This document shows positions 10,966-29,733 of a stretch of 32,000 nucleotides of DNA, in pieces. The stretch is from Candidatus Methanoperedens sp. (GTDB lineage: Archaea > Halobacteriota > Methanosarcinia > Methanosarcinales > Methanoperedenaceae). Both the position numbers and the translations under genes were made by a program. The notes beneath the pieces were generated by a model that was not told the DNA's origin, did not search any database, and saw only the letters and a list, made by a program, of their open reading frames with translations. Where the stretch lies: the NCBI GenBank assembly GCA_027460535.1, contig JAPZAR010000018.1:30001-62000 (forward strand). The letters are read 5' to 3'. The number at the start of each line of letters is the position of its first letter. Position 1 is the first letter of the stretch.

Positions 10966-13104
10966 TTACAAACCATCAAGGAATTCTAGTGCTATTCGCC
11001 TTCTTTCGACAAAATCAGGCAGATATGAACCTGGTATTAATCCTGTTATTTCATAGCGGTAACGAATAAAATCTTTATTCTGTCGCAAGAAATTTCTTAT
11101 CTCATCAATCCATTCTTCATGACCAGCTTCTCGATAAACTTGCGCATGGGCATCAAAAACGTCATTAATATCAAAGAATGTTTTTCTCGGAAGATGACTT
11201 GGTACTTCGGCAGAGAAGTAGGCATGATCGCCTGCCTCCAGAGCAACACTACGGCCTTTTGCCGTTGGGATTCCAAAATATTCCATTAACCTATCTTCAA
11301 GCAGATGGTGGGCTTCAATTGTACTTTCATCTATTCCACGCCGTCCTGTAAGTCCTGTTTCTCTTACATAATTGAGGACCTCATCGTAATTTCCAAATAT
11401 ATCTCCTTTAGGCCTTATCTCCACTGTTGGGTATCTAGCGTCAGGCCATATTGCTTTTGAAGGGCCCATTGGCTTATAACCAGCCTTTATTAGTTGTTCA
11501 TACATCGGCGAGAATGTCTCTCGAGCCGTTACCGCTACAGGTTCTACCTCTCGTACTCCAGCAGAGGCGAATTCATCCATGCGCCTTATTATGAGTTCTG
11601 CCTTGTTTAGCTCCTCTGCTGGAATTTCACCCCCCTGGCGTATTAAGAGAGTCCAACTTGAGATCCGACTTCTTTCTGCTTGAGTTAGATTTGAAGCAGC
11701 TTTAACAATATCTGCAATTTCGTCGGGGTGACGTCCAATTGATTTAGCTATACGTGTTGCTCCACGCAGGGCACCACCCCCTGCTAATGGAAGTAAAGCG
11801 CCAATTCCCATTAAAACTAAATCTGTTCCAGTTAAGGGTCGTCCCCATTTATCATAACCTTCAAAAATTCCATAAAAAAATTCTGCAATATCTGTGAGGT
11901 CACCTACTACAGGTATTAATCCTATGGCAGTGTCGGTGATTGCTTTTGCAAAAATTTGTTCATTTGGTTCATAGTAAGTCGCTTCAAAAGTTGTCAGTTG
12001 ACGCCCAACAGGCTTAATCGATGTCCCTTGAACAGGCACTTGAGTAACACTAGGAACCTCATATACTTCTAAAATGGGATCCGCTAATTCAATGTTTCCC
12101 AATACAACTTCTTGCTTGGGGGTTTGAGCTTCTGTTGCTCTATTTACGAAAAATTTTGTGGAAGGTGTTTTTACTACTTTTATTATAGATACATTTTTAG
12201 GATAACTAAGAGCCAAAGGGTTAGCTGGAATCAATTCATAGGCGAAGCGAGCCGTGCCCAAAAAACTTGGTGCTGTGATTTCAAATACATCCCCTGAAGC
12301 CGTGTGTATTATATCAATCCCATCAGGGCGTTTCTTGACAACAAGAGGAGGAGGACCTGCTACTCCGTAAACAGGTTGCATTCCTACATAATGTGATGGA
12401 ATTACTGGATCTCCCTGAAGTGGAACAAGTGCAGGGTCTTGGACGCGATAAATTTCAAGTGATGGATACTTGGGACCTAAAATACATAACTCTGGATAAC
12501 CTTCTGTCCGAATTGAAACCCCTGGTGCAACTACTAACCGAATGATTGGATAATCCCTTTTTTCAAACGAAGTTAAGAATTGATAAGCAAATGGTGCTTT
12601 TGCGATTCTCACTTCAGGACTTACTTCTAAAATCACGCGTATTTCAGAAGTAAAATATCTATAAATTAATGTACCGCCCGATGGAGATACCCTGGCATCA
12701 AAAGAGTATTCTGTTGGTATTGTATATATAGCGGTCTCGGTTCCTTCTTCTTTTATCGGTTGCCGCTTCAGTTCATCATTTTCACATTTCGGGCATGCCC
12801 TCTGAATGCTGGGTGTACCGCTGGATACTGCCTGCGGCTGCGGCATCCTCATCACCGCATCCGCTACCCTGTCAGCTTCCCGCTCATAAACATCGCCGGG
12901 CGCGCCTATCCTGAGCTTTGCCTGTAGCGCTCCTGACTTCATGAGCCTCTGCACAGCCTGGTTGCCGATGGTTCTTTGAAGAAAGAGAATTTGTTCAACA
13001 GGTGAACTGAGTGGCTTGTATAAATTACCTTTCCGCACCTGCGAAACCTGATTCTCTATTTTTTTCTCAGGCGCTTTTACCGTTGTCCTGATTGCCTCAC
13101 TCAT
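10966..13104 (-). CDS. polymorphic-toxin-like effector: shared N-terminal leader, tandem beta-rich domains, pre-toxin TG-like domain and a C-terminal module with an AHH motif
   Basis: 712 aa. Residues 1-120 share the leader (LFLQRTIGNQAVQRLMKSG, EREADRVADAVMRM, CPKCENDELKRQPIKEE), but the HExxH DUF4157 core is missing. LIPVVGDLTDIAEFFYGIFEGYDKWGRPLTGTDLVLMGIGALLPLAGGG resembles the PT-TG pre-toxin domain. IEAHHLLEDR lies in the C-terminal module. AGGAGA Shine-Dalgarno 6 nt upstream of the ATG. Confidence 0.8.
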   Translation of the reverse strand: MSEAIRTTVKAPEKKIENQVSQVRKGNLYKPLSSPVEQILFLQRTIGNQAVQRLMKSGALQAKLRIGAPGDVYEREADRVADAVMRMPQPQAVSSGTPSIQRACPKCENDELKRQPIKEEGTETAIYTIPTEYSFDARVSPSGGTLIYRYFTSEIRVILEVSPEVRIAKAPFAYQFLTSFEKRDYPIIRLVVAPGVSIRTEGYPELCILGPKYPSLEIYRVQDPALVPLQGDPVIPSHYVGMQPVYGVAGPPPLVVKKRPDGIDIIHTASGDVFEITAPSFLGTARFAYELIPANPLALSYPKNVSIIKVVKTPSTKFFVNRATEAQTPKQEVVLGNIELADPILEVYEVPSVTQVPVQGTSIKPVGRQLTTFEATYYEPNEQIFAKAITDTAIGLIPVVGDLTDIAEFFYGIFEGYDKWGRPLTGTDLVLMGIGALLPLAGGGALRGATRIAKSIGRHPDEIADIVKAASNLTQAERSRISSWTLLIRQGGEIPAEELNKAELIIRRMDEFASAGVREVEPVAVTARETFSPMYEQLIKAGYKPMGPSKAIWPDARYPTVEIRPKGDIFGNYDEVLNYVRETGLTGRRGIDESTIEAHHLLEDRLMEYFGIPTAKGRSVALEAGDHAYFSAEVPSHLPRKTFFDINDVFDAHAQVYREAGHEEWIDEIRNFLRQNKDFIRYRYEITGLIPGSYLPDFVERRRIALEFLDGL

Positions 13105-13117
13105 TTGTTATCTCCTT

Positions 13118-13344
13118 GAAATTAATCGCATAAATCTTCCTTTTATCTTGATTGATAATTTCCTGGTTAATCACCTTTGCCTCATAGTCATTCCAGACAT
13201 GCCATTTTTGATTATTCTCGCAGGTAAAACCCCTGCACGGCACAGGGTGGTGGTCGCAATGCGCAGCGGTAGGTCTTCCTGTCTATATGAACGCAGTAGC
13301 CATCAGTATCGTGTGCGATAAGATATGGTCTTCCGAACTCCCAT
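13118..13344 (-). pseudogene. decayed fragment of the YkgJ-type gene (remnant copy B, frameshifted, terminal codons and intergenic region deleted)
   Basis: The nucleotide sequence aligns with 15486-15722 (for example gccatttttgattattctcgcaggtaaaacccctgcacggcacaggg). A small deletion relative to the intact copy shifts the frame (...gcattgcgaccaccaccctg versus ...acagtgcgcgaccaccgccctg). The track shows no ORF here. Confidence 0.7.
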
Positions 13345-13368: not shown

Positions 13369-15360
13369 TCAATAATGTTGTTTGGGTATGAAATCTCCTG
13401 TTGCAGCTTTGGCGGCTTCATTTCGACCAATCACGTCTTTCTTGTAAATTTTAGCATCCGTCCCCGATCCATTATATGCTTCTATGGCAGCGTCCCAATC
13501 CTTAACTCCGTTTCTTTTTTCAAACAACCACCGAACTGCCGTGCGAATCCAGTAGTCATAATCGAGATTTCGGGCTTTGGTCGTTTCAGTAAAGAATTCC
13601 TCAACTGCTGATTCCCATCGCGTGTCCGTGGTGAAGAAAACGTTCCAGCGATCGCCGTTTTTAGATCGAGAATTGATCGTATCCAATTCCGACTTTTCCG
13701 CGGGCGTTATTGATTTGCCTTTTGCTACAAGTTTTTTTCTGCGTGCTTGAGCATCAAACATATCTTTAGTTACCTGATCGAGATTGTGTTTGATCGCGAT
13801 AGCTGGACTTATTTCCTTGATCATCAAAATTTGCTGATCTCCAGAGCTATCAATAGCCTGACCTATATTGAAACGGGTCATCCGTTGCCCTTTCGTATAT
13901 GGTGGAAGTTTGAGGAAATCTCCCAGTGTCCCCATGTGGGACTCCTGATACAACATTGATTTCACCAGGCTGGCATCCAATGCAAGCCATTTCTTTGGCG
14001 AACCGATGTTCTTATTGTAAAACGCTACCCATTTTACAATACTTGCATCGAAAGCATTGAACATGGTTTCTTCTATCAAAGCTTTGTTCAGTAATGTGCT
14101 TTGTGGGATGATGGGAATTTTTATTCCATCTGCTTCTATTTTCAAATATTCGGGAAGTGTAGCAGAGGTGTATCCTTCTCCCGTCAACTTGTATTTCAAA
14201 TCTTTAAGTTCGGTTTGCTTCACATTCATCTGGCGCTGCCATTCGGCTTTTCCATTGTCGGTCGTATACTTTTTTTCCTCTGCCTTCCAATCAGACACTA
14301 CTTTTTCCTGATCGCTGATTTTCTTTTCGAGTACGGCATATTTTTTTTCTATGCTCGCAACACCTGCATGGTATTGAGATAAGCCCGATTTGGTGTCGCC
14401 TGCTGGAACCAGAATATTTTTCTCGATAGTGACGGAGGTAACTTTACTGCCTGATGTGAAATTGGCAGTGACTGAGGTTTTGGTGTTCGACCATGCAGTA
14501 ATGACCACACTGCTTCCTTTGGGAAGAGTAAGGTCAGAAACCTTCAACTCTTTGTTGAGTATAAACATTTTCCCGATCATCTCTTCCACGGCATCTTCGG
14601 GTAGGAATCGCTGAACAATTCCAAGGCTCGATAGTCCTTGTTGCACAACATGCGTAAGCTCATGTGCCAGCAACTGCCGCCCATCAAGCGTTCCGGGCGC
14701 ATACTGCCCGGCTCCAAAGGCCACATCCTTGCCTACTGTAAATGCGAGTGCATTCAAATCCCTCGCAGACTTTGCAGCCCTTTCGTCTGTATGCAACCTC
14801 ACCTTAGTGAAGTCATGACCGAATCGTGGCTCGAAAAAGGCGCGGTCGTTTTCTGATAAAGACTGCCCTCCACCCTTGAGGGACTGGATTTTTGATTCAA
14901 TATCAGGATTTATTTCAGAGATACCACCAGAAGTTGTCTTCCCCTGAAGCTCTTCCTCCTCTTCTTCGACTGGTTTCCTTTGCAGCTTCTCCTCTTCGTC
15001 TTCTTCTTTTATCGGTTGCCGCTTCAGTTCATCAATTTCACATTTCGGGCACATCCTCTGGATGGAAGGTGTACCACCGGATAACGCCTGCGTCTGCGGC
15101 ATCCGCATCACTGCATCCGCTACTCTGTCAGCCTCCTGCTCGTAAACATCGCCTGGCGCGCCTATCCTGAGCTTGGCCTGCAGCGCTCCCGACTTCATGA
15201 GTTTCTGAACAGCCTGGTTGCCTATAGTTCTTTGAAGAAAGAGAATTTGTTCAACTGGTGAACTGAGTGGCTGGTAGAAATTACCTTTCTGCACCTGTGA
15301 AATCTGATTCTCTTTTTTTGTCTCTGGTGCTTTGACCGCTGTCTTGACTGCTTCGCCCAT
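13369..15360 (-). CDS. DUF4157-type effector: shared leader, acidic linker, HExxH DUF4157 domain, coiled coil and a C-terminal lysozyme/SLT-like domain
   Basis: 663 aa. Leader as above, then RAFFEPRFGHDFTKVRLHTDERAAKSARDLNALAFTVGKDVAFGAGQYAPGTLDGRQLLAHELTHVVQQG (DUF4157-type core). The C-terminal region carries SMLYQESHMG, NIGQAID and AIEAYNGSG, which resemble lytic-transglycosylase motifs I-III. Confidence 0.85.
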   Translation of the reverse strand: MGEAVKTAVKAPETKKENQISQVQKGNFYQPLSSPVEQILFLQRTIGNQAVQKLMKSGALQAKLRIGAPGDVYEQEADRVADAVMRMPQTQALSGGTPSIQRMCPKCEIDELKRQPIKEEDEEEKLQRKPVEEEEEELQGKTTSGGISEINPDIESKIQSLKGGGQSLSENDRAFFEPRFGHDFTKVRLHTDERAAKSARDLNALAFTVGKDVAFGAGQYAPGTLDGRQLLAHELTHVVQQGLSSLGIVQRFLPEDAVEEMIGKMFILNKELKVSDLTLPKGSSVVITAWSNTKTSVTANFTSGSKVTSVTIEKNILVPAGDTKSGLSQYHAGVASIEKKYAVLEKKISDQEKVVSDWKAEEKKYTTDNGKAEWQRQMNVKQTELKDLKYKLTGEGYTSATLPEYLKIEADGIKIPIIPQSTLLNKALIEETMFNAFDASIVKWVAFYNKNIGSPKKWLALDASLVKSMLYQESHMGTLGDFLKLPPYTKGQRMTRFNIGQAIDSSGDQQILMIKEISPAIAIKHNLDQVTKDMFDAQARRKKLVAKGKSITPAEKSELDTINSRSKNGDRWNVFFTTDTRWESAVEEFFTETTKARNLDYDYWIRTAVRWLFEKRNGVKDWDAAIEAYNGSGTDAKIYKKDVIGRNEAAKAATGDFIPKQHY

Positions 15361-15722
15361 TGTTATTTTCCTAAATTAAATATTCTCATATGTATATAAT
15401 AACTTTTAACATCTCAAACTGCCAAGAAAATTGCATGACTATTCTATGTACTTCCAACCTCTCATCCATTTGATTTTGACTTTGAAATCGCATAAATTTT
15501 ACTGTTATCCTGAGATATCTTTTCCATCATTTCCTGGTTAATGACCATTGCCTCATAATCATTCCAAACATGCCATTTTTGATTATTCTCGCAGGTAAAA
15601 CCCCTGCACGGCACAGGGCGGTGGTCGCGCACTGTGCAGTGGTATGTATTCCTGTCCATATGAACGCAGTAGCCATCAGAATCATGTGCGATAAGATACG
15701 GTCTTCCGAACTCCCAGCGGAT
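14626..15722 (-). repeat. reference copy (C) of the dispersed effector-junction repeat: ykgJ-like 3' end, intergenic region, leader, acidic linker and DUF4157 core
   Basis: Its parts recur at 10462-10925 (copy A), 12745-13344 (copy B) and 17641-18375 (copy D, without the ykgJ part). Long stretches are near-identical at nucleotide level, for example ggttgcc-nnn-gttctttgaagaaagagaatttgttcaac and ttcttttatcggttgccgcttcagttcatca. Confidence 0.85.
15361..15461 (-). promoter_or_regulatory. conserved AT-rich intergenic region with a TATA-like box upstream of the effector leader
   Basis: Read on the minus strand: ...aaaagttattatatacatatgagaatatttaatttaggaaaataacaATG. A homologous copy precedes the orphan leader (10645-10731). 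The segment is deleted upstream of the 712-aa gene (13104). A promoter role is inferred only from the AT box and position. Confidence 0.3.
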
Positions 15723-16118
15723 GATGCCCTCATCCACATCCTGTTTAGACAGGGCAAAAGGAAATTTGCAGCACATAGCCTTGCATGTATGCAGCCTGCT
15801 CTCGCAGTCCACTTGGGTTTCATGTTCGAACGTGTATTTGTCTTCCTCCGGATCCTGATACATAAGTCCCATGCCACTCTCTACGAACTTCTTTACCAGC
15901 CGCTCTGCGACCTGATTTTTCCGCTTGTCCAGTTCCTCGATCGAGATCAATCCCTTTTCGCTGAGCAGTTCGATGACTGCATAGAGGAATGAGGTTGATT
16001 CTAAGGTTTTTTTGGTATTGGAATTGATGCGGGTGTGGGTGTAGAGCAGACCTTCGGCTAATTCCTTGTGTTCTTCACGCAATAGCTCTTTATTTCTAAT
16101 TTGAGTTTCTGTTTGCAT
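15462..16118 (-). CDS. YkgJ/UPF0153-family Cys-cluster (CxxCxxCC-type) putative Zn/Fe-binding protein
   Basis: 218 aa. VDCESRLHTCKAMCCKF...DSDGYCVHMDRNTYHCTVRDHRPVPCRGFTC fits the YkgJ pattern (C..C..CC ... dG.C ... C.i...RP..Cr). Its 3' end is duplicated at 10732-10923 and 13118-13344. Confidence 0.75.
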   Translation of the reverse strand: MQTETQIRNKELLREEHKELAEGLLYTHTRINSNTKKTLESTSFLYAVIELLSEKGLISIEELDKRKNQVAERLVKKFVESGMGLMYQDPEEDKYTFEHETQVDCESRLHTCKAMCCKFPFALSKQDVDEGIIRWEFGRPYLIAHDSDGYCVHMDRNTYHCTVRDHRPVPCRGFTCENNQKWHVWNDYEAMVINQEMMEKISQDNSKIYAISKSKSNG

Positions 16119-16482: not shown

Positions 16483-18375
16483 TTAATAATGCCCCAGCTC
16501 AGCCTTGGGTAAATCGAGCTCATTAATGAAAGGCACATTTCCAGACCGCCTATGTTGCAAGACCCAAAAAGCAATGAGTGCCGGTGAATACAAATCGGTT
16601 GTGTCAACTCCGAAATCATCACAAATAAGATACTGGAGTTCTATGTCATAGATGCGCAAGCTGAGATTGATACTAAAACGCGTAATACGGATACTTAAGC
16701 CCTGGGTTCCACCGATGATAGCTTTCAACGCCGTGCTGTCTGAGAAACCAAAGCTAACAGCAGGAACTCCCGCCGTGGGTAGAGTGATAGCGTTGCAATC
16801 GATCACTCCCGCAGCATCCATGCTAGTCAGCTGACGTTCGATTTCCCGGATCACGCTAGCGTGCAAGCGCGAGAAAGTCCCTGAAACAAGCGCATCCGCG
16901 CCCAGTGTACTGGAACTGTCATGAGTAAGCTTGGTTCCCGTGCCACCAGAGAAATGGGTCACCATCCTCAACCCCTCCGCACCAGCTAGTCCGCCCAGTT
17001 CCAGGCGCATGCGGTTACGTAACTGGAAATCGAGAGTAAGGTGGTCAGCCTCCCATACAGCTGCCTGTTGTGCAACATTAGTACCTTTTAGTGGAGGAAA
17101 ATCATTAGATCTAAAATCTGCATCCGCACCACAAGCTCCACGGTTAAAGATCTCTCTGGGCATAGCAGTACAGGGAATAACCCTAGTCTGTATCGGCCTT
17201 GGCGGAATCAGATTAGGAGAGCCTCCTCGCATCTGTATGGAGACACGTCGGTTTGGAGAATATGATGCTGCAAATTCAGAGGTTTCGCCATGGGCAAACA
17301 TTTCTATATCGGAGGCAGGTATACCAAGTCCTCCGCTCGCCGGGCTCATAAGTGCGTTTTTGACAGCCATGGCGCGGTTGCACGAGAGAGTCCAGTTGAG
17401 GGAATCGGTACCTTCGGGGCTGGCGTAACCATCAAGACGTAAATTCTCGTTAGCGCCAGAAGCGTGCCAATTGTTAACAAAGTTGTCGATGGCAGTCTCG
17501 TCACTGGAGCTCAGGTTAGCACTGTTTACTCGGAATATGATGTCTAGATTAGAGACACCAGGAGAGTCATGCGCGATTGGGCAGGCAAGACCACTGGGTA
17601 ATTGGCTTGGATCACCTATGCGCTGAATTTGCGGTTGCACCAAGCCACCACTTTGTTGCACCGCATGCGTCAACTCATGCGCAATTAACCGCTGTCCCTC
17701 GATCGTTCTAGGTGTATACTCCCCCGCTCCGAAAACCATATCGCTGCCGATAGTGAACGCCCGCGCATTCACCGCTCGAGCCATTTCAGCCGCCCGTGTA
17801 TCTATGTGCAAACGCACCTGGCCGAAATCCTGGCCAAAACGCGGCTCGAAAAAGGCGCGTTCGTTTTCTGATAAAGGCATGCCTCCTCCTTTGAGAGACT
17901 GGATATTTGATTCGATATCAGGATTTAATTCAGAGATACTACCTGATGTTGCTTTCGCCTGAAGCCCTTCCTCCTCTTCTTCTACTGGTTTCCTTTGCAG
18001 CTTTTCTTCTTCGTCTTCTTCTTTTATCGGTTGCCGCTTCAGTTCATCATTTTCACATTTCGGGCAAGCTCTCTCGATGTTGGGTATACCACTGGATGAT
18101 GCCTGCGGCTCAGACATCCTCATCACTGCATCCGCCACCCTGTCAGCCTCCTGTTCGTAAACATCGCCGGGCGCGCCTATCCTAAGCTTAGCCTGCAGTA
18201 CACCGGATTTCATGAGCTTCTGGACAGCCTGGTTGCCAATCGTTCTTTGAAGAAATAGAACTCTATCAACCGGTGAAATTCTGGTTTTTGAACAACATGG
18301 CTTTCTGGTCTTTGATACAAAATTCTGACTATTTGCCTCATGCTTTTTAACTTCTATTCTAGATATATTGCCCAT
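16483..18375 (-). CDS. DUF4157-type effector: shared leader, acidic linker, HExxH DUF4157 domain, OmpA-like peptidoglycan-binding domain and an unknown C-terminal domain
   Basis: 630 aa. RAFFEPRFGQDFGQVRLHIDTRAAEMARAVNARAFTIGSDMVFGAGEYTPRTIEGQRLIAHELTHAVQQSG is the DUF4157-type core. IIFRVNSANLSSSDETAIDNF...LRLDGYASPEGTDSLNWTLSCNRAMAVKNAL...IEMFAHGETSEF...PNRRVSIQM is OmpA_C-like. GGGAGG lies 5 nt upstream of the ATG. Confidence 0.88.
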   Translation of the reverse strand: MGNISRIEVKKHEANSQNFVSKTRKPCCSKTRISPVDRVLFLQRTIGNQAVQKLMKSGVLQAKLRIGAPGDVYEQEADRVADAVMRMSEPQASSSGIPNIERACPKCENDELKRQPIKEEDEEEKLQRKPVEEEEEGLQAKATSGSISELNPDIESNIQSLKGGGMPLSENERAFFEPRFGQDFGQVRLHIDTRAAEMARAVNARAFTIGSDMVFGAGEYTPRTIEGQRLIAHELTHAVQQSGGLVQPQIQRIGDPSQLPSGLACPIAHDSPGVSNLDIIFRVNSANLSSSDETAIDNFVNNWHASGANENLRLDGYASPEGTDSLNWTLSCNRAMAVKNALMSPASGGLGIPASDIEMFAHGETSEFAASYSPNRRVSIQMRGGSPNLIPPRPIQTRVIPCTAMPREIFNRGACGADADFRSNDFPPLKGTNVAQQAAVWEADHLTLDFQLRNRMRLELGGLAGAEGLRMVTHFSGGTGTKLTHDSSSTLGADALVSGTFSRLHASVIREIERQLTSMDAAGVIDCNAITLPTAGVPAVSFGFSDSTALKAIIGGTQGLSIRITRFSINLSLRIYDIELQYLICDDFGVDTTDLYSPALIAFWVLQHRRSGNVPFINELDLPKAELGHY

Positions 18376-18663: not shown

Positions 18664-19647
18664 CTATTTTCTTCTCATTAAAAAATATACTATCAAGATT
18701 ACAATAACAAATCCAAGAATAAATACAAGAGTAAATTCAAACATTGGGGACTTTTTCAATGTTGGATCCAATTTATATGCTATGTTAAGTGCTTCTTCTC
18801 CTTCTTCTGTTCTACCTAAGTTATTAAGAACAATCCCTTTTCTATACCATGCATTTGCATACTCCGGTTCTATCGCCAGCGCCTTATTATAACTTTCCAG
18901 CTCTTCTTCATATCGTCCTAAATTACCCAGGGCAAATCCTTTGTTATACCATGCAGAAGCTGATTGCGGGTCGATTTCCAGCGCCCTATCAAAACTTCTT
19001 ATGGCATCTTCATGTCTTCCTGAACTATCTAGGGCAATTCCTTTATTTTTCCATGCATTGGCATTCTTTGGATCTATCTTCAACGTCTTATCAAAATATT
19101 CTATTGATTCATTATATTTATTAAGACTTGAAAGAGATAATCCTTTTAAAAATAATGCATCAGTGTCATCTGGATTTATTTCCAGTGCTCTATCATAACT
19201 GCTTATGGCATCTTCGTGTTTTCCCCATTTAGCAAACGTTATTCCTTTCATAAGCCATGCAGAATTATCCTCTTGATTTATCTTCAATGCTTCTTCATAA
19301 CTTTTTATTGCTTCTTCATATCTCCCCAAATTACCAAGGGCGATTCCTCTCTTATCCCATGCAACAGTTAATTTCGGGTTTAATTCCAATGCTTTATCAT
19401 AGCTTTCCAACTCCTCTTTATGTCTTCCTAATTCACCAAGGGTAGTGCCCATGTTATACCATGCATTCGCGAACTGTGGATCAAGCTGAATAGCATTGCT
19501 AAAAGCTTCAAGCGCCCCCTCATAATTTCCGGCCTTTTCTAAAGTAATACCCTCTCGGTTCCAGTCAGATGCAGTTTTTGCACCAACTGCTGATATCATC
19601 AGCGACAATACGATAGACAATAAAATAATTCTTAAAATTTTGTTCAT
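18664..19647 (-). CDS. secreted tetratricopeptide-repeat protein (8 TPRs) with a C-terminal PEF/PGF-CTERM-like anchor
   Basis: 327 aa. The signal peptide is MNKILRIILLSIVLSLMISAVGA. Eight consecutive 34-aa TPR units follow (AxAWxxKGxALxxLGRxEEAxxSYxxALExxP). The C-terminus SPMFEFTLVFILGFVIVILIVYFLMRRK combines a motif, a TM helix and a basic tail. Confidence 0.85.
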   Translation of the reverse strand: MNKILRIILLSIVLSLMISAVGAKTASDWNREGITLEKAGNYEGALEAFSNAIQLDPQFANAWYNMGTTLGELGRHKEELESYDKALELNPKLTVAWDKRGIALGNLGRYEEAIKSYEEALKINQEDNSAWLMKGITFAKWGKHEDAISSYDRALEINPDDTDALFLKGLSLSSLNKYNESIEYFDKTLKIDPKNANAWKNKGIALDSSGRHEDAIRSFDRALEIDPQSASAWYNKGFALGNLGRYEEELESYNKALAIEPEYANAWYRKGIVLNNLGRTEEGEEALNIAYKLDPTLKKSPMFEFTLVFILGFVIVILIVYFLMRRK

Positions 19648-19812
19648 ATTACTCCATAGCTTATCGAGATTTCTCTAATATTATCTGCTCTCTTTATTTT
19701 CTATAAGTTTTTGATTTTTTGTATCGCTAACTGTAATGCATTCACTAACCATTGTATCCTGCTCCAGCGCAGGAGTAAAATGGGTAGATTACCGTGTAGG
19801 TCACTGAATTTT

Positions 19813-21546
19813 TCATGAAAATGAATAGATTGCCCACGGATACAAATTTTGCTGGCAATTGGGACAATTTCGTCGAAAGACTGAAAAGTCTATTTTATCG
19901 TTACAACTGGGACATGACAATTTTTTATCTTTGATTTTAATAAAAATATAAGTTACACATGAAAAAACAAAGAAAAAAACCATCGTAAGTGGTTTATTAT
20001 TAAGAGTTTCAATTGCATAGAATCTGATTAAGATATACAAGAATGATGATAGAATCGAAACAAATATGAAATTTTTTACTGCTTCTTTTTTATTAAAACT
20101 TCTCCGTATCAGAATTGATGAAAAAATCAGAATGTATAGCAATACAATTGAAAAATAGAGAGCATGCCAGAACCATGCTTTCGCTATATCTAGGAGATTG
20201 CTCATTATAGTATTAATTTCATAAAGGGAAATAATTGCGGGAAAATAAATTAATTCATTGGTCAACCATCCTAAACTGAATGCCATTGAAAATTTTATTA
20301 GATTTGAAATAGTAGTGGACGAAAAATAGTTCTTCTTTTCAATAAAAGTATCTCTTAATATCGATTTATGAAAACTAAGGCTTACAGGCAGCATCAGAAC
20401 AGGAACGATGAAAACAGAGATAATAGCTCTAAGACCAATATATATCTCTCCACTTGATTGATAGTTCTCATTTGCCATTGCAGCCCATTCAGAAGAAGAC
20501 AATGAAAAAATCTGATTGAAAAAAGGCAACGATAACTCAATTAAACCGTAGAAAAAACCAATACTAAATGCAATCCATAGACTTGGATCAAACAGGCTCA
20601 GATTATTTTTAAGGATCTGAATTCTTTCGTTTATATTCGGGTGAAATTTTTTTAGTAATTCAAATTTCGAGTACTGCTCTCCGCCACTTTCTTCCAGAGT
20701 TTTTACAATATTTTCAGGAGATCTTTCCCATTCAACAACTCTTGCATCTGCATAAAACTCTCTAATACGGATTATCTGGTTTCGCAATACATAGATAACT
20801 CCTAAAAAAATTATAAAATAAATAATGATCCCTCCATATAATGCCACTCTTTTTCCAATATCCATTTTAGAGATTATATAATCCATATCATATCCTGCGA
20901 GATTCCCCAAGTAAAATATGCTTAACGCAAGATATATTTCATATAATAGAAAAATTCCAAGCGGTACTGACAGGGTCAGGAAAAGCGACCGCCATGTAGA
21001 ATTCGCCAGATAAGTTTTTTCAACATCTCTGTTAACTATATGACCCATTTCATGAAGGAAAATCGTTTTGAAACCATTGAGATTTTCCCGAAACATTTTG
21101 ATCAGCCCGCCAGGAATACCAATGTACATATGATTTTTCGTACCAAAAGTAAAAGCGGACTTTGATGCATCCAGTGGTTGAACCATCAGCACAGGTTTTT
21201 TCTCTCTCGAAAAGTATTCACTATGTAGCTTTTCAATGTATTCATGGTGTTCTGGATACTTTTTTGGGTCAAACTCCTTCAATTTTGATTCTTTTTCAAT
21301 TTTTCCTGTAGATTTTTTATAATCCCTGTAAATCAAAATGGGGATAAATAAGAAAATCGGAATCACAATCAATAATCGGAGAATAAGCGTTATCTCAGCG
21401 CCGGCCATCACATAAAAAATAACAATCGCAAATATCAGAGCCCATAAAGATGGAACGATAATGCCAATTAAGACCATTAAGTAAAATCGAATATCGGTCT
21501 CCGAGATATACACGAAAGGATTTAAACGGATATCATTTTCGTTCAT
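19813..21546 (-). CDS. polytopic membrane M48-like (HtpX/Ste24-type) zinc metalloprotease with a C-terminal zinc ribbon
   Basis: 577 aa. HEMGH lies at nt 21040-21054 (FLHEMGHIVNRD), and the downstream REFYADARV is the M48 third-ligand ExxAD pattern. There are many hydrophobic helices. The C-terminal CPSCNDKIDFSVFRRNCPNCQ forms a CxxC...CxxC ribbon. Confidence 0.8.
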   Translation of the reverse strand: MNENDIRLNPFVYISETDIRFYLMVLIGIIVPSLWALIFAIVIFYVMAGAEITLILRLLIVIPIFLFIPILIYRDYKKSTGKIEKESKLKEFDPKKYPEHHEYIEKLHSEYFSREKKPVLMVQPLDASKSAFTFGTKNHMYIGIPGGLIKMFRENLNGFKTIFLHEMGHIVNRDVEKTYLANSTWRSLFLTLSVPLGIFLLYEIYLALSIFYLGNLAGYDMDYIISKMDIGKRVALYGGIIIYFIIFLGVIYVLRNQIIRIREFYADARVVEWERSPENIVKTLEESGGEQYSKFELLKKFHPNINERIQILKNNLSLFDPSLWIAFSIGFFYGLIELSLPFFNQIFSLSSSEWAAMANENYQSSGEIYIGLRAIISVFIVPVLMLPVSLSFHKSILRDTFIEKKNYFSSTTISNLIKFSMAFSLGWLTNELIYFPAIISLYEINTIMSNLLDIAKAWFWHALYFSIVLLYILIFSSILIRRSFNKKEAVKNFIFVSILSSFLYILIRFYAIETLNNKPLTMVFFFVFSCVTYIFIKIKDKKLSCPSCNDKIDFSVFRRNCPNCQQNLYPWAIYSFS

Positions 21547-22007
21547 TGTATCCCCATGAGCGTCAATTTTCCAATTATAGAATCAGCATAAAAACCTGCT
21601 TTCTGCTCATCTATCCCCATGGATAAAGCATCCTTGAATACATAATCTCTTAAATCCTTGATTTTCGCATTTGATGTATGAACCTCTTTTCCCCCTATTT
21701 TTTCTTTGATCTTATCCTCTAAAGCCTTTGCACCCTCCTTTTTTAGGGATTCGACTCCGGCCTTACCGATATGTGCTATAACACCCCAGATAAGCGGAAG
21801 AATCGTAGTTGTAATGAATACTTCTCCAACTCCACCTCCAAAACCCAGCATTTTTTCTTTTTTCTTAGGATCTTTCTCCAGAAAAGCATCAGGATTTTTA
21901 AGATATTCTTCTTTTATATCGTCGAATAAATCCAGTTCATCAGGTGCCACTTCTTTTATAATTTCATACGAAAGGCGAGACGCCAATTCTTCACTATTTT
22001 TATCCAT
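21543..22007 (-). CDS. hypothetical protein, translationally coupled to the M48-like protease
   Basis: 154 aa. Its stop overlaps the downstream start (ATGA at 21543-21546). GGTGGTGA Shine-Dalgarno upstream. It has one central hydrophobic segment (VFITTTILPLIWGVIAHIG) and Lys/Glu-rich flanks. I recognise no motif. Confidence 0.6.
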   Translation of the reverse strand: MDKNSEELASRLSYEIIKEVAPDELDLFDDIKEEYLKNPDAFLEKDPKKKEKMLGFGGGVGEVFITTTILPLIWGVIAHIGKAGVESLKKEGAKALEDKIKEKIGGKEVHTSNAKIKDLRDYVFKDALSMGIDEQKAGFYADSIIGKLTLMGIQ

Positions 22008-22184
22008 TTTTTCACCACCTTAAATCACATAATCAGATTTGGTTTTTAATGTACAGACCTCTTACTTGAAAGTCCAGAGGTATCAGTGTTAGTTCTGTCA
22101 ATTTTTTGGGATTTCTATAGTCTACCTGATCTTTTTGATTTGATTCAGGCGCGGGTACGGAATTGAATAATAATGAATATTTAC

Positions 22185-22988
22185 TCAGATGATATTGGTG
22201 TCAGTAAGCCACATATCCATCGTTGAAGTAAATTTATCGTAAAGGCCACCACCGGTAAAGACCGAAGTTCCAGAACGATAGAAGCCACCGAATCCAATAT
22301 GTGGCAGGTAATATTCGCGCACAATATAATCGTGGGATTGATCATCACATGTTTCCACACCCGCAGTTATCTGACACATCGGTTTATAATAACGTTCGGA
22401 AATTACTACTGCGGGACGATTGTTGATTGTGGTCTCGCCTATAGATTTCTTACGATTCAGCGGAAAAATAACCTATGAAACCTTCATCGTCATGTGAGTC
22501 AAACAGTCTAGCTGCCCTATGGTTAGTGCCATCATATTAACCGATATAAATGACTCCATCTCTTGAAGCCAAATATTTCACTTTGTTAATAGATAATGGA
22601 TAACTATCACCGGACAGCGTGTATTTGATGCGATGAAAGGTTATTTCACCCAAATCAGTCATGTCCCAAATTTCAGAATCGGTCAATTCTATAATTAAGG
22701 TTCCAGATATTGTGGGGTCACCAGAAGAAGCATACTCCCACGAATATTTCCAGTAGGCACCCTTAAATAATTTGATATCATCAAAACCTTTGTAAAGGAA
22801 AGTAGGTGACTTGCTGGTAGGGGTCTCAGTTATAGTTGGAGTGTTCCCTCTCTTGTATGATGTTGTAGTTGGTTGAGTTTCTTTATCGTTTCATTCCATA
22901 CAGCTTTTTCTTGCACACAGCCACTTATAAAAACAACTACACTCGTCAATAATCCCAAGAACATTATCATTCTTAATTTATTAATCAT
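22185..22988 (-). pseudogene. decayed lipoprotein gene (two frameshifts plus an in-frame stop)
   Basis: The ATG at 22988 gives MINKLRMIMFLGLLTSVVVFISGC (signal peptide plus lipobox Cys), and that frame stops at 22830-22832. The coding signal continues one frame over from about 22890 (NDKETQPTTTSYKRGNTPTITETPTSKSPTFLYKGFDD...ASRDGVIYIG). It is interrupted by TAA at 22537-22539 and continues (YDGTNHRAARLFDSHDDEGFIGYF). It then shifts frame again near a T5 run at about 22470 (...NRKKSIGETTINNRPAVVISERYYKPMCQITAGVETCDD...TDTNII*, ending at 22185). The 22185..22379 track ORF is only the last piece. Confidence 0.55.
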
Positions 22989-23122
22989 ATTCCCACCATC
23001 ATTTTAATTATATTACCTAAGTAAATATTTTTCGAAAGATAAAAGCGCGTTAAGAGCAAAGTGGAATATTATTTTTGAGAGAAATGAAATATAGTTTCCT
23101 ATACGTCAATAATCCAATTTCT

Positions 23123-23353
23123 TCACTCTGTTATTGGCTCAGATTTAGGAATTCTTTCTAACTGGCTTGTGCTAACCGACTCTATCTGCCTCTCTTTCAC
23201 CAGTTCCTCTTCAAGCACCTGGATCGCACCACTGATGCGCAGCAGTGTGTTCCTCAGGTTCGCCTGTTTAATTTCCAAGTCGGAGAGTGCTTTTTGACCT
23301 GATTCGAATTCGGTTCTCAGTTCTTTGAGACGATGCTCTAATCGTTCTTTCAT
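23123..23353 (-). CDS. small coiled-coil protein downstream of the tail fibre (possible fibre accessory or chaperone)
   Basis: 76 aa with heptad-like, Leu/Glu/Lys-rich sequence (LKELRTEFESGQKALSDLEIKQANLRNTLLRISGAIQVLEEEL). A strong AGGAGG lies 7 nt upstream of the ATG, 13 nt after the tail-fibre stop. Confidence 0.6.
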   Translation of the reverse strand: MKERLEHRLKELRTEFESGQKALSDLEIKQANLRNTLLRISGAIQVLEEELVKERQIESVSTSQLERIPKSEPITE

Positions 23354-23366
23354 AATTCAACCTCCT

Positions 23367-26300
23367 TCAACTTGAATATACGAATATATCGATAACCCCT
23401 TTTCCTGACTCATGCCTATCAAGGGCTTTTCCTATAATCGTTCCTGGTCGAAATAATTCTTCACCTTTAATTTTTATAGGACTGGCTTTCATAGCATGAC
23501 CAGGGATTGAAGAAGATGTTAATAAATTTCCCCTTTTTATCGGACCATTTTCATCAACAACTTTACAGGGAACACGACCACACAGGGCAACAGGAAATAC
23601 CTTTTCACCGTCACGCTTTGTATTTAACAAGAATCCAGGTGCAGTCGATATAACTCCGAGGACTAAACAGTCATCCGGCTTTTCCGATATGATGATTCTA
23701 TCCTCGTCCTGGTCCAAACGAACAACATCTCCAGGTTCAAGATCCATATCTGAAGAATAGTTCTCAGCTAGGTCGCCAACCAAACCGGTTTTGAAACCAT
23801 AACTTGAATACATTGTTCCCTCTGCTTGCACATCACCTGCAACATGCAGCGCGCATACTGGGTCCGTTGTCATGATGCCGACGTAGCCTTTATTATAGTA
23901 AATACGCCCGGCGATAGAACCATCAATCCATTTGCTTGCGCCAAAAATATTTTTTAATCCTGAGCCATCGCCAACAAACGCATCCGCCTTAACTGTACCG
24001 ATGACTTCTAATTCTTTTGATGGCGTTATCGTACCGATGCCGACATTTCCTTTATCGTAATAGATACCGCCAGCAGCATCAGACCATTTGCCTGCGCCTG
24101 TTAACTGTGAGCCATCGCCTATGAATTTCGTTGCGCTGACAGTTCCATTAACTGATAAATCGCTGGCAGCATAAGCGTTCCCCACGAAGATATTGCCATT
24201 AATATCAATTCTCATTTTCTCTTTACCGTTTATCCTAAACTCCAGACCTTGAGAATTGCCTTTGACATCAATGTATGAAGTATCATCGTTATCTCCCTTG
24301 ATATCCAGACAGATTTCTCCCTCATCACCGAGACGCAGATGGCTACCGTTCCAACGCCTTCCGAGTAGCGTTAAAGAAGGATAACCATTGCCGATGATTA
24401 AAAGCCCTTCCTTATCATAATCATCTGGAACATATTGATCTTCGCCTGCATAAGTAAATTCGCCAATCTGGAGCTTTCCTGATGGGCTCTTTGTACCGAT
24501 GCCGACGATGCCATTATAAAAAATACTATCAGGGACTGCACCATCTGACCATTTGCCTTCATTGATACCTGTTAATCCTGATCCATCGCCTATGAACTTA
24601 TCTGCCTTAATGGTGCCTATAACAGATAGTCTATCGGTTGCAGATGGTGGTGTCCCGATACCCACGTTGTTCTTATAATAAATCCCGGCAGGGTCGCCGA
24701 GCCATTGGGTTTTACCGGTTAACTTCGAGCCGTCACCTATGAACTCCTTGGCTTTGACAGGGCCGTCAACGTATAAATTACCTAATAATTCCACATTACC
24801 CTTTCCATCAATACTGATTCTGATCAATTCCCGGGTCATGAGATAAATAGAATTGGACCCACCCATCGAGTTAATTTGCAGGCCACCTCCACCAGTACCT
24901 TCAGCCTGAATCCTGATATCGCTGTTTGTATCCTCAGTCGAAAGCCTTAATGCGTAACCGTCATTGCTTTTCACATCTAACCCATAACCTGGCGTGGATG
25001 TGCCAATGCCAACATTGCCTTTATCATAATAAATCCCGGCAGGGTCATTGAGCCATTGGCTGGCTCCTGTTAACTGCGAACCATCACCTAAGAACACATC
25101 TGCTTTAACAGTGCCGGCGACCTCTAATTCATTTGACGGCTTATCCGTCCCGATACCGACATAGCCGCCATTACGGTTTATATAAGTATTTGCAGCGCTA
25201 TTATTTATTAACAAGGCTTCAAGCTCTTTTGACCAGAGAATATCCGCTTTCTGTGTGCCATCTTCATAGAAAGATATCACCGGGTCGGGTATGAATTCTG
25301 CCAGCATTGGTACGGGGGCCGGACTGGAACCATGGATCCTGACATAATCACCTGACATAGAATCAATCGGTTGAACAAGAAGATCCCCGTTCCTTACTTC
25401 AAGTTTTGATTCCGGATTCAGCGTCCCAATACCGACATTCCCCATAATCTCGGCATTTTCGGCTAAATTCAATGTATCTCCTGAGAATCCAGATGCATTA
25501 ATGTTAGTGGCTTTAACTGTGCCATTAACGTGCAGTAGTTTTTCAGATGGTTCATCGATACCTATGCCAACATTGCCATCGTTATCAACAATCAGGGCAG
25601 GGTCAGGAGAGCCGTCTGAACCCACGAGTTTGCTGTGCTTATGGAGTTCATCTGCAATTGAAGCATCGGTCAATTTAAGCACATTGTCACCGTAAACTAA
25701 ATCTAACAAATTATTTTCAAGACCGATTTTCCATTTGCTATTTTTCTCAATAGCCTCCTCTCGCCATATTATCTGGGCATTTGGTGCTGTCCCACCCCGA
25801 TAAACCTCTAAACCGCCATCACCAATAAGCGGTTTTTTATTCCCGGGGGGTGGATAATCATGTACTGTAATGATATTGTCTGAAATTACTACTCCTTCTT
25901 TCCGGGTCCCTTTGACTGTAAGATTACCATCAATCGTACAATTACCATCGACTGCCAGATTTTTATCACCCGGATCAGATGTGCCTCCGATGTGCAGACC
26001 GCCGGGCATCCCGCTTTTTACCTCAAGCGTCCCATTAACAGTGCAATTGCCATCTACGACCAGATTTTTATCACCCGGCTCAGACGTGCTTCCGATACGA
26101 AGACCGCCTGTGAAATTCGTTAAAGGAGAATTGATTTGAATCCCGTTTTCAGCATCAAACTTCTTTCCCTCGATAGAAAGTGCGCTTTCTTCCCCATCCA
26201 CAGATAGCGCCAGTTTACCGTAGGCTCCAGCATAAATGCGGTCTTCATTTTCGATATGGACATGTCCATCTATCAATTTGACCTTTGCCAGTATGATATG

Positions 26301-26771
26301 ACTTTCATTGTCAGGTTTATTTTCAGGTTTAACTGCAATTAATTCAACTTTGGCTGTTTCCAGCCAGTTGATTTCTTCACTCCCCCCCTTCGACTCATCA
26401 GTATAGTTTTTTTCCTCAAACCGATAAATATAAAAATAGACTCCATCACCTTCAGCTGCAGTGCCTTTGAGTTCGATATCATCTGTCTCAGCAAAAAGAA
26501 TGATCTCCTGACTTACATCATCTTCATTTGCTGCTTTCACCTTATTGAGCGCCATGCCCGGCTTTATTTTTACACTTGTGGGATTGGATCCCTCTACTAC
26601 CTCCAGTCCCCATACTATCCCGTGGCTGTGCAGATGCCCGTTATGAAGCCGCCGCATCCTGATATGATAATTCTGGTCAAGCACGAACTCTTCCTGTTTC
26701 AGGAACAGTTCATTAAAGTATCGCATCCTTCTGACTTCTTTCATTTTCTCAATGTCATCCAACGTTATCAT
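23367..26771 (-). CDS. eCIS/phage tail-fibre-like protein with repeated GNVGIGT...FIGDGSxLTG units
   Basis: The track ORF is 23367..26825. I prefer the ATG at 26771 (MITLDDIEKM...) because GGAGGT lies 6 nt upstream. At least six repeat units of the form IYYxKGNVGIGTxxPxxxLEVxGTVKAxxFIGDGSxLTG occur between nt 23826 and 25583. A tandem ~33-aa duplication (G-T/S-SxPGDKNLxVDGNCT) lies at 25908-26111. The non-repetitive C-terminal domain is about 150 aa. Confidence 0.85.
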   Translation of the reverse strand: MITLDDIEKMKEVRRMRYFNELFLKQEEFVLDQNYHIRMRRLHNGHLHSHGIVWGLEVVEGSNPTSVKIKPGMALNKVKAANEDDVSQEIILFAETDDIELKGTAAEGDGVYFYIYRFEEKNYTDESKGGSEEINWLETAKVELIAVKPENKPDNESHIILAKVKLIDGHVHIENEDRIYAGAYGKLALSVDGEESALSIEGKKFDAENGIQINSPLTNFTGGLRIGSTSEPGDKNLVVDGNCTVNGTLEVKSGMPGGLHIGGTSDPGDKNLAVDGNCTIDGNLTVKGTRKEGVVISDNIITVHDYPPPGNKKPLIGDGGLEVYRGGTAPNAQIIWREEAIEKNSKWKIGLENNLLDLVYGDNVLKLTDASIADELHKHSKLVGSDGSPDPALIVDNDGNVGIGIDEPSEKLLHVNGTVKATNINASGFSGDTLNLAENAEIMGNVGIGTLNPESKLEVRNGDLLVQPIDSMSGDYVRIHGSSPAPVPMLAEFIPDPVISFYEDGTQKADILWSKELEALLINNSAANTYINRNGGYVGIGTDKPSNELEVAGTVKADVFLGDGSQLTGASQWLNDPAGIYYDKGNVGIGTSTPGYGLDVKSNDGYALRLSTEDTNSDIRIQAEGTGGGGLQINSMGGSNSIYLMTRELIRISIDGKGNVELLGNLYVDGPVKAKEFIGDGSKLTGKTQWLGDPAGIYYKNNVGIGTPPSATDRLSVIGTIKADKFIGDGSGLTGINEGKWSDGAVPDSIFYNGIVGIGTKSPSGKLQIGEFTYAGEDQYVPDDYDKEGLLIIGNGYPSLTLLGRRWNGSHLRLGDEGEICLDIKGDNDDTSYIDVKGNSQGLEFRINGKEKMRIDINGNIFVGNAYAASDLSVNGTVSATKFIGDGSQLTGAGKWSDAAGGIYYDKGNVGIGTITPSKELEVIGTVKADAFVGDGSGLKNIFGASKWIDGSIAGRIYYNKGYVGIMTTDPVCALHVAGDVQAEGTMYSSYGFKTGLVGDLAENYSSDMDLEPGDVVRLDQDEDRIIISEKPDDCLVLGVISTAPGFLLNTKRDGEKVFPVALCGRVPCKVVDENGPIKRGNLLTSSSIPGHAMKASPIKIKGEELFRPGTIIGKALDRHESGKGVIDIFVYSS

Positions 26772-26843
26772 ATTTTTACCTCCTTGTTTTATTATAATCA
26801 TTTCTCTTAATATCTTTAAACTCACTCGATTTCCATTGACAGA

Positions 26844-27860
26844 TCATGCCTCCGTGCTTTCGCGGATCAAGCTTCCAAGCAGTGTATCCACCCCGATTTT
26901 TGAATGTACTCCTATTTGCATGGTGGGTGCCTCAGTAATCAGATAATAATATGTGTGAGCCGGTTTTTCAAGATTGATGATGTTCCTTATGACGCGCCTC
27001 CTCTTTTCCAGTATCTCCCGACTCGCTGTGGGCAGCTCGATATATACCTGGAAATAATAGGGGCGTCCTTCCCGTATCGCTGTATTCGTTCCGATCGTGG
27101 AACTGACGCCTATCTGTAATGTCTCCAGGAACTCATTTATTGATATCTTGACATCTTCGCCCACATAGATCCGGATGAACTTTCGCAGTCCGTCAAGCGT
27201 TCCTCGCCTCTGGTACAGCGGGATTATCTTCGCAATAAGATCGCGCTTTTTCGCAGCGTTATTCTCATTCCATTCATCCTCTTCTCTCGGAACAAGGGCC
27301 ATCCAGCCTGCAAGCCAGGGAAGGAACTCAAGAGGCATATTAAGAGGTTCGAAATAGATATGGATCTGGTCAATTATTTCCTCTATACCTTTTCTTTGAG
27401 TTACTTCATAAGGGAACGCTTCTACCAGAAGCATCATGTTCAGGCGGATGAGGTCATTACCGACCGGATTTTTTTCAAGAAGCTCTGCGGTTTCAGGAGA
27501 TAATTTTATCCTCTGGAAGCGGTTTTTTTCATATATCGAATTTCCAAGGAGCAGGTTCTTGAATTCTTCATTCAGGGCTTTTTGAAGGGCTTCTGACGGC
27601 TGACTTGCATTCATGAACTCATCCAGAATCCGCCTGTTCTCTTGTGAAAATCTATCCTTAATGAAAACGGACAGGGGATTATTAGCATCAAGCAATTTGT
27701 ACGCCAGACCAGCCGGATCTTTGATCTCCACGCGGAACAGTGAGTATTTTGAAAGGATGTTCTCAAATACTTTCAGGAACCTTTCAAGAAAGCCATCTTT
27801 TTCTATCTGATAGATGGCAGGCAAATACCGAAGATAATTTCTGTCGTTATTGTCATTCAT
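26844..27860 (-). CDS. phage P2 gpI-like baseplate wedge / tail protein (eCIS Afp12/Pvc12-like position)
   Basis: 338 aa. YLRYLPAIYQ...FLERFLKVFENIL, EFLPWLAGWMAL, IIPLYQRRGTLDGL and NLEKPAHTYYYL match the conserved blocks of the phage-tail-protein-I (TIGR02242-type) family. The start overlaps the upstream gene by 8 nt. Confidence 0.8.
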   Translation of the reverse strand: MNDNNDRNYLRYLPAIYQIEKDGFLERFLKVFENILSKYSLFRVEIKDPAGLAYKLLDANNPLSVFIKDRFSQENRRILDEFMNASQPSEALQKALNEEFKNLLLGNSIYEKNRFQRIKLSPETAELLEKNPVGNDLIRLNMMLLVEAFPYEVTQRKGIEEIIDQIHIYFEPLNMPLEFLPWLAGWMALVPREEDEWNENNAAKKRDLIAKIIPLYQRRGTLDGLRKFIRIYVGEDVKISINEFLETLQIGVSSTIGTNTAIREGRPYYFQVYIELPTASREILEKRRRVIRNIINLEKPAHTYYYLITEAPTMQIGVHSKIGVDTLLGSLIRESTEA

Positions 27861-29712: not shown

Positions 29713-29733
29713 GTGTTGCCTCGAAAGAAAAAA

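Follow-up and report, generated by a model that had tools for sequence, protein, structure and literature searches.

Contractile injection system (CIS) loci are common in anaerobic methanotrophic (ANME) archaea, including Methanoperedens, and their function is unknown (PMC9012536, PMC12246660, PMC12180501); roles in syntrophy and interactions with syntrophic partners, or in defence of the consortium, have been proposed (PMC9012536). In extracellular contractile injection systems (eCIS), DUF4157 is a marker of toxins (PMC8213781). The cargo proteins of AlgoCIS, which are carried in the tube lumen, consist of an N-terminal domain (NTD), DUF4157 and, at the C-terminus, a further domain (CTD); loading depends on the NTD, and DUF4157 can be dispensed with (bioRxiv 10.64898/2026.05.27.728243). 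Colicin M cleaves lipid II by means of D226, Y228, D229, H235 and R236, which lie in its DxYD(x5)HR motif (PMC8469651). The DUF3289 (PF11692) effectors of type VI secretion systems (T6SS) include T6EC1 with its DUF943 immunity protein (PMC11148199), a protein of Aeromonas jandaei shown to be a genuine effector and followed by an immunity gene (PMC12135965), and BtpeA/Bfe5 of Bacteroides fragilis (Protein Data Bank (PDB) entry 9jdi). Directed to the periplasm of E. coli, DUF3289 is toxic and makes the cells round up; DUF943 neutralises it, and homology with colicin M has been proposed (PMC11148199). Here we analyse a protein of 630 amino acids (aa) encoded in 32,000 nucleotides of DNA from Candidatus Methanoperedens (the window; contig JAPZAR010000018.1, positions 30,001 to 62,000). 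We consider it rather probable that this protein is the cargo of a Methanoperedens CIS and carries a payload for the bacterial periplasm, where it would probably act on lipid II or some other intermediate linked to undecaprenyl pyrophosphate.

The gene and its parts are as follows, with the basis of each assignment in brackets.

16483 to 18375, minus strand: complete cargo gene, 630 aa, with leader, DUF4157, OmpA-like and toxin domains (list of open reading frames (ORFs), Pfam)
17896 to 18375, minus strand: N-terminal leader, aa 1 to about 160, with the acidic stretch KEEDEEEK, presumed loading sequence (similarity to neighbours)
17644 to 17877, minus strand: DUF4157/eCIS_core domain, aa 167-244, with an HExxH motif (H233-E-L-T-H237) (PF13699)
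17245 to 17535, minus strand: OmpA-like, putatively peptidoglycan-binding domain, aa 281-377 (PF00691)
16486 to 17226, minus strand: C-terminal toxin domain, aa 384-630, DUF3289-related, with a predicted colicin M-like fold (homologues, AlphaFold2, Foldseek, profile)
16546 to 16620, minus strand: most conserved block, D586-D-F-G-V-D591-x-x-D594-L-Y596 ... L-Q607-H608-R-R610, candidate active site (alignments A1, A2, A3)

In its layout the protein resembles the DUF4157 eCIS toxins (Geller et al. 2021) and AlgoCIS Cgo1 and Cgo2. Like them it has an NTD, DUF4157 and a variable CTD, and it is encoded at the 3′ end of a structural operon, in a locus where several cargos have a common NTD. It differs from them in its archaeal host and in the combination of an OmpA-like domain with a DUF3289-like payload, which is not described in the eCIS literature considered; a peptidoglycan-binding domain is present in 68 predicted toxins (Danov et al. 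2024). With the DUF3289 effectors it shares the predicted fold, the block DxFG[VL]D...DL...LQHxR...PFI and a presumed antibacterial role in the periplasm. Unlike those effectors, it lies below the Pfam threshold, is built on a leader and DUF4157 rather than on PAAR, VgrG or Hcp, is fused to a peptidoglycan-binding domain, comes from an archaeal producer and has no adjacent immunity gene that we could find. Its likeness to the colicin M bacteriocins (ColM, PaeM, syringacin M and pectocins M) consists of a weak but consistent similarity of the catalytic domain, conserved Asp, His and Arg residues, and a predicted action on a cell-wall precursor at the periplasmic face; it lacks their TonB-dependent receptor-binding and translocation domains, as well as DxYD(x5)HR, and would be injected rather than imported. 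As with the bacteria-killing peptidoglycan hydrolases of archaea (PMC12352652), the protein makes sense only with the cell wall of bacteria, or the synthesis of that wall, as its substrate. In the present case a lipid-linked precursor is predicted to be attacked and not the polymer, and delivery would be by a CIS and not by Sec/Tat secretion. The features that set the protein apart are the archaeal producer, the eCIS-type scaffold in place of T6SS or bacteriocin import, the fused murein anchor and a toxin clade not captured by Pfam.

The initial annotation had described a 630-aa effector with a C-terminal domain of unknown type. The ORF exists, and all the peptides quoted for it are present in the translation. 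Direct sequence comparison did leave the domain without a name, as the last 247 aa gave no match of their own in searches of Pfam, NCBIfam or PDB sequences. The type can nevertheless be assigned, since fold and profile tie the domain to DUF3289, a link that was revealed only by structure and family-profile searches. A word-indexed search returned 36 close homologues, among them proteins of Thalassomonas, Thioploca and Conexibacter that are annotated as hypothetical. A precomputed Pfam annotation for OmpA is attached to seven of the 36, and the alignment places the OmpA-like region directly upstream of the toxin domain. Several others are stand-alone forms of 174 aa, which match a minimal core of the toxin domain at approximately aa 456-630, and one has a DUF4157-type leader and no OmpA domain. 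An exhaustive profile search extended the family to 819 cluster representatives with E ≤ 1e-3, of which 304 reached ≤ 1e-10 and 103 reached ≤ 1e-30.

An AlphaFold2 model of the C-terminal domain, computed from an alignment, had a predicted local distance difference test score (pLDDT) of 94.4 and a predicted template modelling score (pTM) of 0.87. When this model was compared with the PDB by Foldseek, the sole significant match was 9jdi_A (E 8.9e-9, probability 1.0, TMq 0.56, 219 columns). This chain, solved together with the immunity protein that binds it, is the toxin domain at the C-terminus of BtpeA, a T6SS effector of B. fragilis, and was named 'DUF3289 family protein' by the depositors. 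The family profile, run against PDB sequences, also matched 9jdi_A (E 2.9e-6), and the aligned block reads DDFGVDesDL...FWVLQHeR...PFI in the family and DHFGLDapDL...FILQHFR...PFI in 9jdi. Pfam DUF3289 was matched by 19 of 37 and by 24 of 100 family members (the 24 at E ≤ 1e-3), with a best E of 1.1e-7. The profile match to 9jdi and the family members that match Pfam DUF3289 therefore indicate, at the level of sequence and modelled structure, that the C-terminal domain forms a divergent clade, sister to DUF3289. A reading of the domain as a phage structural protein was dropped, as there was no meaningful match in the viral structure library BFVD.

The domains to which the toxin is joined point to the compartment in which it would work. 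Among 100 representatives of the toxin family, partners were DUF4157 (39), OmpA (23), PG_binding_1 (16) and LysM (3). The strongest argument for action beside peptidoglycan is this recurrent fusion to three unrelated murein-binding domains. A Thalassomonas homologue is encoded between two DUF4157 genes and adjoins DUF6519/DUF4815 genes, and a protein of an Anaerolineae bacterium has the same DUF4157-OmpA-toxin layout. By these sequence associations the toxin family is linked to eCIS in bacteria too, and the OmpA-like domain and the toxin domain of approximately 195-245 aa form what appears to be a two-domain payload module that circulates in bacteria as well. In two metagenomic loci (L011, 3130-5128; L012, 1717-3715) one ORF encodes the DUF4157 part (305 aa) and another, overlapping it by 11 nt, the OmpA-toxin part (363 aa), which could be either a natural split of the fusion or a frameshift. 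The toxin domain also turns up inside proteins as long as 1,700-7,056 aa and beside von Willebrand D domains (P0259, P0276, P0208, P0217, P0219, P0233), which indicates use in polymorphic-toxin contexts other than eCIS.

These fusions also bear on whether the target is a bacterium at all. Colicin M-type enzymes attack the lipid-pyrophosphate linkage and not the peptide (PMC8469651), so that a toxin of this kind might instead cleave the glycan carriers of other archaea that have a polyprenyl- or dolichyl-pyrophosphate linkage, such as those for N-glycosylation of the S-layer or pseudomurein precursors; the injection system would then be used in competition between archaea. We judge this highly improbable: the toxin is fused again and again to the murein binders OmpA, PG_binding_1 and LysM, the named homologues outside the Methanoperedens group are all bacterial (Thalassomonas, Thioploca, Conexibacter and Anaerolineae), and the immunity gene that would be expected if close relatives were targeted was not found.

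The OmpA-like domain itself is well delimited. The initial annotation had placed an OmpA_C-like domain at 17227-17544, and the Pfam match (E 2.7e-10, 40.9 bits against a cut-off of 27.2 bits) locates it within that interval. The YfiB, YiaD and Pal models of NCBIfam gave weaker, sub-threshold matches to the same stretch, and solved OmpA-like domains, including PA0833-PD, align to it and lend weaker support. Its motifs are G316-Y-A-S319-P-E-G, R334 and N375-R-R-V. From this sequence, binding to peptidoglycan is plausible.

The N-terminal half of the protein, in which the initial annotation had mentioned no DUF4157/eCIS_core domain, connects the payload to an injection system. The match to PF13699, the eCIS core domain, is the strongest Pfam match of the protein (E 5.6e-30, 103.8 bits against a cut-off of 22 bits), and by sequence it defines the protein as predicted injection-system cargo. 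The protein is 70% identical over aa 1-250 to a 663-aa neighbour and 67% identical over aa 1-120 to a 712-aa neighbour, with no similarity afterwards in either case. Related archaeal loci carry further DUF4157 genes with other C-termini (three in L003 and one in L002), which the 630-aa protein matches only up to about residue 262-303. The protein thus combines PF13699 and HExxH with a leader shared across the locus and a variable C-terminus, and its gene lies downstream of CIS genes: two Baseplate_J genes and a Tail_P2_I gene were identified by Pfam at 26844-31827, upstream of the cargo genes and on the same strand. By analogy with Cgo1 and Cgo2 of AlgoCIS, the leader would serve in loading. 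The remaining features of the locus are listed below.

23367 to 31827, minus strand: CIS baseplate and fibre genes, comprising two Baseplate_J, Tail_P2_I and a 1152-aa protein (Pfam)
15462 to 16118, minus strand: accessory gene for a Cys-rich (CxxCxxCC-like) protein of 218 aa, downstream of the 630-aa cargo gene (PF03692, E 4.2e-4, below the cut-off)
13369 to 15360, minus strand: second cargo gene, 663 aa, sharing leader and DUF4157 with the first but not the C-terminus (Pfam, leader similarity)
10966 to 13104, minus strand: third cargo-like gene, 712 aa, same leader, C-terminus unknown (leader similarity)
Left third of the window: the housekeeping genes, namely gatA, gatB and genes for a CNNM/CBS transporter, an SDR and a CMD-family protein

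The closest non-archaeal relatives are bacterial, at about 60% identity, as might be expected if the OmpA-toxin module were a bacterial cassette captured recently and carried unused, as a passenger or in decay. A payload for non-lethal adhesion or modulation of a partner may be considered together with this, since ANME injection systems have been proposed to take part in syntrophic partner interactions (PMC9012536). Both possibilities seem to us quite improbable. The ORF is intact, and the leader that it encodes corresponds to those of the other cargos at this locus. Two further variants of Methanoperedens type are 83% and 87% identical. Comparison of the toxin domain with the closer variant (L009; 87% protein and 91% DNA identity) gave dN 0.066, dS 0.206 and dN/dS 0.32, showing purifying selection on the domain. 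The (near-)invariant residues of the family are I554-G-G-T-Q558, D586, F588-G589, D591, D594-L-Y596, F603-W-V-L-Q607-H608, R610 and P615; 23 columns are invariant over the 21 trimmed sequences of alignment A2, and all of the family-invariant residues are kept in the 630-aa protein.

The initial annotation had proposed an antibacterial effector made by an archaeon that has no peptidoglycan wall. The Methanoperedens host, the OmpA domain, the DUF3289-related toxin domain and the fusions of its relatives to murein binders all support the core of that proposal and make it considerably stronger. The favoured mechanism has four steps. The leader would direct the cargo into the particle, and firing would take it across the outer membrane of a bacterium nearby. 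The OmpA-like domain would then hold the payload at the peptidoglycan layer, where the toxin domain would destroy lipid II or another precursor linked to undecaprenyl pyrophosphate, as colicin M does; wall synthesis would stop and the cell would lyse. In the PROCIS work, AlgoCIS particles of wild-type length gave no cytoplasmic reporter response in E. coli and longer particles succeeded. In our view this result is consistent with particles of native length that reach the periplasm for the most part.

Several points weigh against this mechanism, and some of them concern the machine and the anchor. Among the eCIS considered there is no demonstrated case of native cargo delivery into the bacterial periplasm. 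The window covers the baseplate end of the injection system, and the genes for sheath, tube and spike lie outside it; the machine may be either released or cell-anchored. In structures of A. baumannii OmpA and of Pal, the Asp of GxTD and the Arg of LSxxRA contact diaminopimelate. The Arg is kept here as R334 and the Asp is replaced by Ser319, so that binding to peptidoglycan is not assured; the OmpA domains of the homologues conserve the same 'AS' variant at this position.

Other points concern the chemistry. The 630-aa protein itself did not match Pfam DUF3289, whose cut-off is 25 bits, even at E 10. The strict colicin M motif DxYD(x5)HR is absent, and the family has DxFGVDxxDLY...(x10)...QHxR in its place; membership of the colicin M family was rejected for this reason. 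Similarity of the modelled fold to colicin M is weak: Foldseek ranks 2-11 had E values of 0.03-0.3 and TM scores of 0.18-0.33. In the papers considered, the evidence for DUF3289 proteins is phenotypic, namely periplasmic toxicity and cell rounding, and does not include biochemical cleavage of lipid II (PMC11148199, PMC12135965). The missing motif, the weak structural similarity and the phenotypic nature of the DUF3289 evidence would also suit a periplasmic antibacterial cargo with a chemistry unlike that of colicin M, such as disruption of the membrane, hydrolysis of peptidoglycan, or binding and sequestering of a component of wall synthesis. However, the matches that follow BtpeA, at ranks 2-11, are all of the colicin M family (syringacin M, ColM, pectocin M and PaeM), and the invariant residues D586, D594, H608 and R610 form an Asp/Asp/His/Arg set analogous to the acidic, His and Arg catalytic residues of colicin M. 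A different chemistry therefore appears unlikely to us, and action on a lipid-linked wall precursor is the reading that we prefer.

The host of the locus is an archaeon, Candidatus Methanoperedens. The GatB encoded in the window shows 88-95% identity to its counterparts in Candidatus Methanoperedens genomes. A bacterial host was rejected because of the 95% identity of GatB and because related cargo arrays are present in metagenome-assembled genomes of Methanoperedens and Methanobacteriota. The exact 630-aa protein is present on three independent assembled contigs. One of them (L008) keeps the gene order of the window all the way from the cargo genes to two housekeeping genes, SDR and CNNM. This identical junction between cargo array and housekeeping genes in an independent assembly argues against a chimeric contig, and that explanation was rejected.

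The search for an immunity gene next to the cargo gene, either DUF943 or a small membrane protein, gave none; ORFs in the 364-nt spacer are at most 60 aa long on either strand. The 218-aa Cys-rich gene was considered as a toxin-specific immunity gene and rejected, because related genes also follow cargos with other C-termini. Its product looks cytoplasmic. An 87%-identical Cys-rich gene lies behind the 83%-identical cargo homologue in L010 (2036-2707), and in L002 (12576-13208) a PF03692 gene lies behind a DUF4157 gene with a different C-terminus. Three archaeal loci thus encode a CxxCxxCC-type (PF03692-like) protein of approximately 210-223 aa immediately downstream of a DUF4157 cargo gene, and from their sequence and position these proteins may be a conserved accessory factor of archaeal cargo arrays. 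Methanosarcinales are known to have no murein. A producer without peptidoglycan or lipid II would need no immunity protein.

The initial annotation had also noted that the C-terminal domain is encoded by DNA more GC-rich than the rest of the island. This is so when other island genes are taken for comparison (0.325-0.456), and fails when the domain is set against its own gene or against housekeeping genes. The GC content is 0.502 in the C-terminal domain, 0.511 in the OmpA part, 0.548 in the DUF4157 part and 0.496 in the whole gene, and the chromosomal housekeeping genes in the window range from 0.44 to 0.55. As the gene itself and the core genes of the host are similarly GC-rich, the signal does not single out the C-terminal domain. 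A foreign, GC-rich C-terminal domain was accordingly rejected, GC being flat over the DUF4157, OmpA and toxin parts and equal to that of the host core genes.

The two neighbouring cargo genes share the leader and differ in what follows. Their 5′ leaders and that of the 630-aa gene form a family of direct repeats (D1) with three copies, at 12744-13043, 15000-15299 and 18015-18314, of 80-89% identity; this repeated leader DNA is likely to be a recombination substrate for swapping C-terminal payloads. The 712-aa protein gave no match to DUF4157 or any other Pfam family. The GC content at third codon positions (GC3) of its gene is only 0.30, against 0.46-0.47 in the 630-aa and 663-aa cargo genes. 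Within the spacer that separates the 663-aa gene from the 712-aa gene, a stretch of approximately 190 nt (13155-13343) is 90-94% identical to 15526-15716, inside the 218-aa gene, and on this sequence evidence looks like a remnant of a duplicated unit of cargo gene and Cys-rich gene.

The 663-aa protein had been called SLT-like in the initial annotation, and this was not confirmed: no Pfam match beyond DUF4157 and no PDB sequence or profile match was obtained. Its C-terminus (aa 251-663) is a DUF4157-linked family of its own, with 42 homologues including proteins of Aquimarina and Bacteroidia. A weak SLT match was obtained in only 1 of 38 homologues (E 0.048). In the AlphaFold2 model (pLDDT 91.8) a beta domain of SH3-like type is accompanied by a long coiled coil and by a helical domain, which bears the invariant Glu of YQES. 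The only Foldseek matches were SH3-like, to the N-terminal beta subdomain. The invariant YQ-E-S, N-x-x-Q and A-Y-N-G-S-G resemble what we take to be motifs of family-1 lytic transglycosylases; the likeness to SLT is thus confined to motifs (YQES, NIGQ and AYNGSG).

Between the baseplate genes and the cargo array, on the minus strand at 18664-21546, lie genes for a membrane-anchored tetratricopeptide repeat (TPR) protein and a multi-pass M48-peptidase-like protein, with the lowest GC content of the window (0.33-0.36). Within the injection-system operon, no ORF in the 1.3 kb at 22007-23367 exceeds 76 aa. In the related loci L003 (7668-9938) and L002 (8478-9989), metalloprotease genes lie directly upstream of the DUF4157 cargo arrays. 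These encode thermolysin-like (M4) and fungalysin-like (M36) enzymes with FTP propeptides, accompanied in L003 by PepSY. A scan for tRNA genes as an integration site found none.

If the assignment of the toxin domain is true, it defines a large, eCIS-linked clade of colicin M-like toxins outside Pfam. With its 819 cluster representatives, this clade links the DUF3289 effectors of T6SS, the colicin M bacteriocins and eCIS cargo, and it may serve as payload for engineered injection systems directed against bacteria. For the archaea themselves we propose more tentatively that ANME-2d possibly use their CIS as an inter-domain weapon, injecting a peptidoglycan-anchored enzyme that destroys lipid II into the bacterial periplasm. 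The cargo and the targets of ANME CIS have been unknown so far, and both payload domains of the 630-aa protein make sense only against a cell that contains murein; the question of whether archaeal injection systems target bacteria thereby becomes directly testable. If true, this would be the first cargo-to-target logic identified for an archaeal CIS directed at bacteria.

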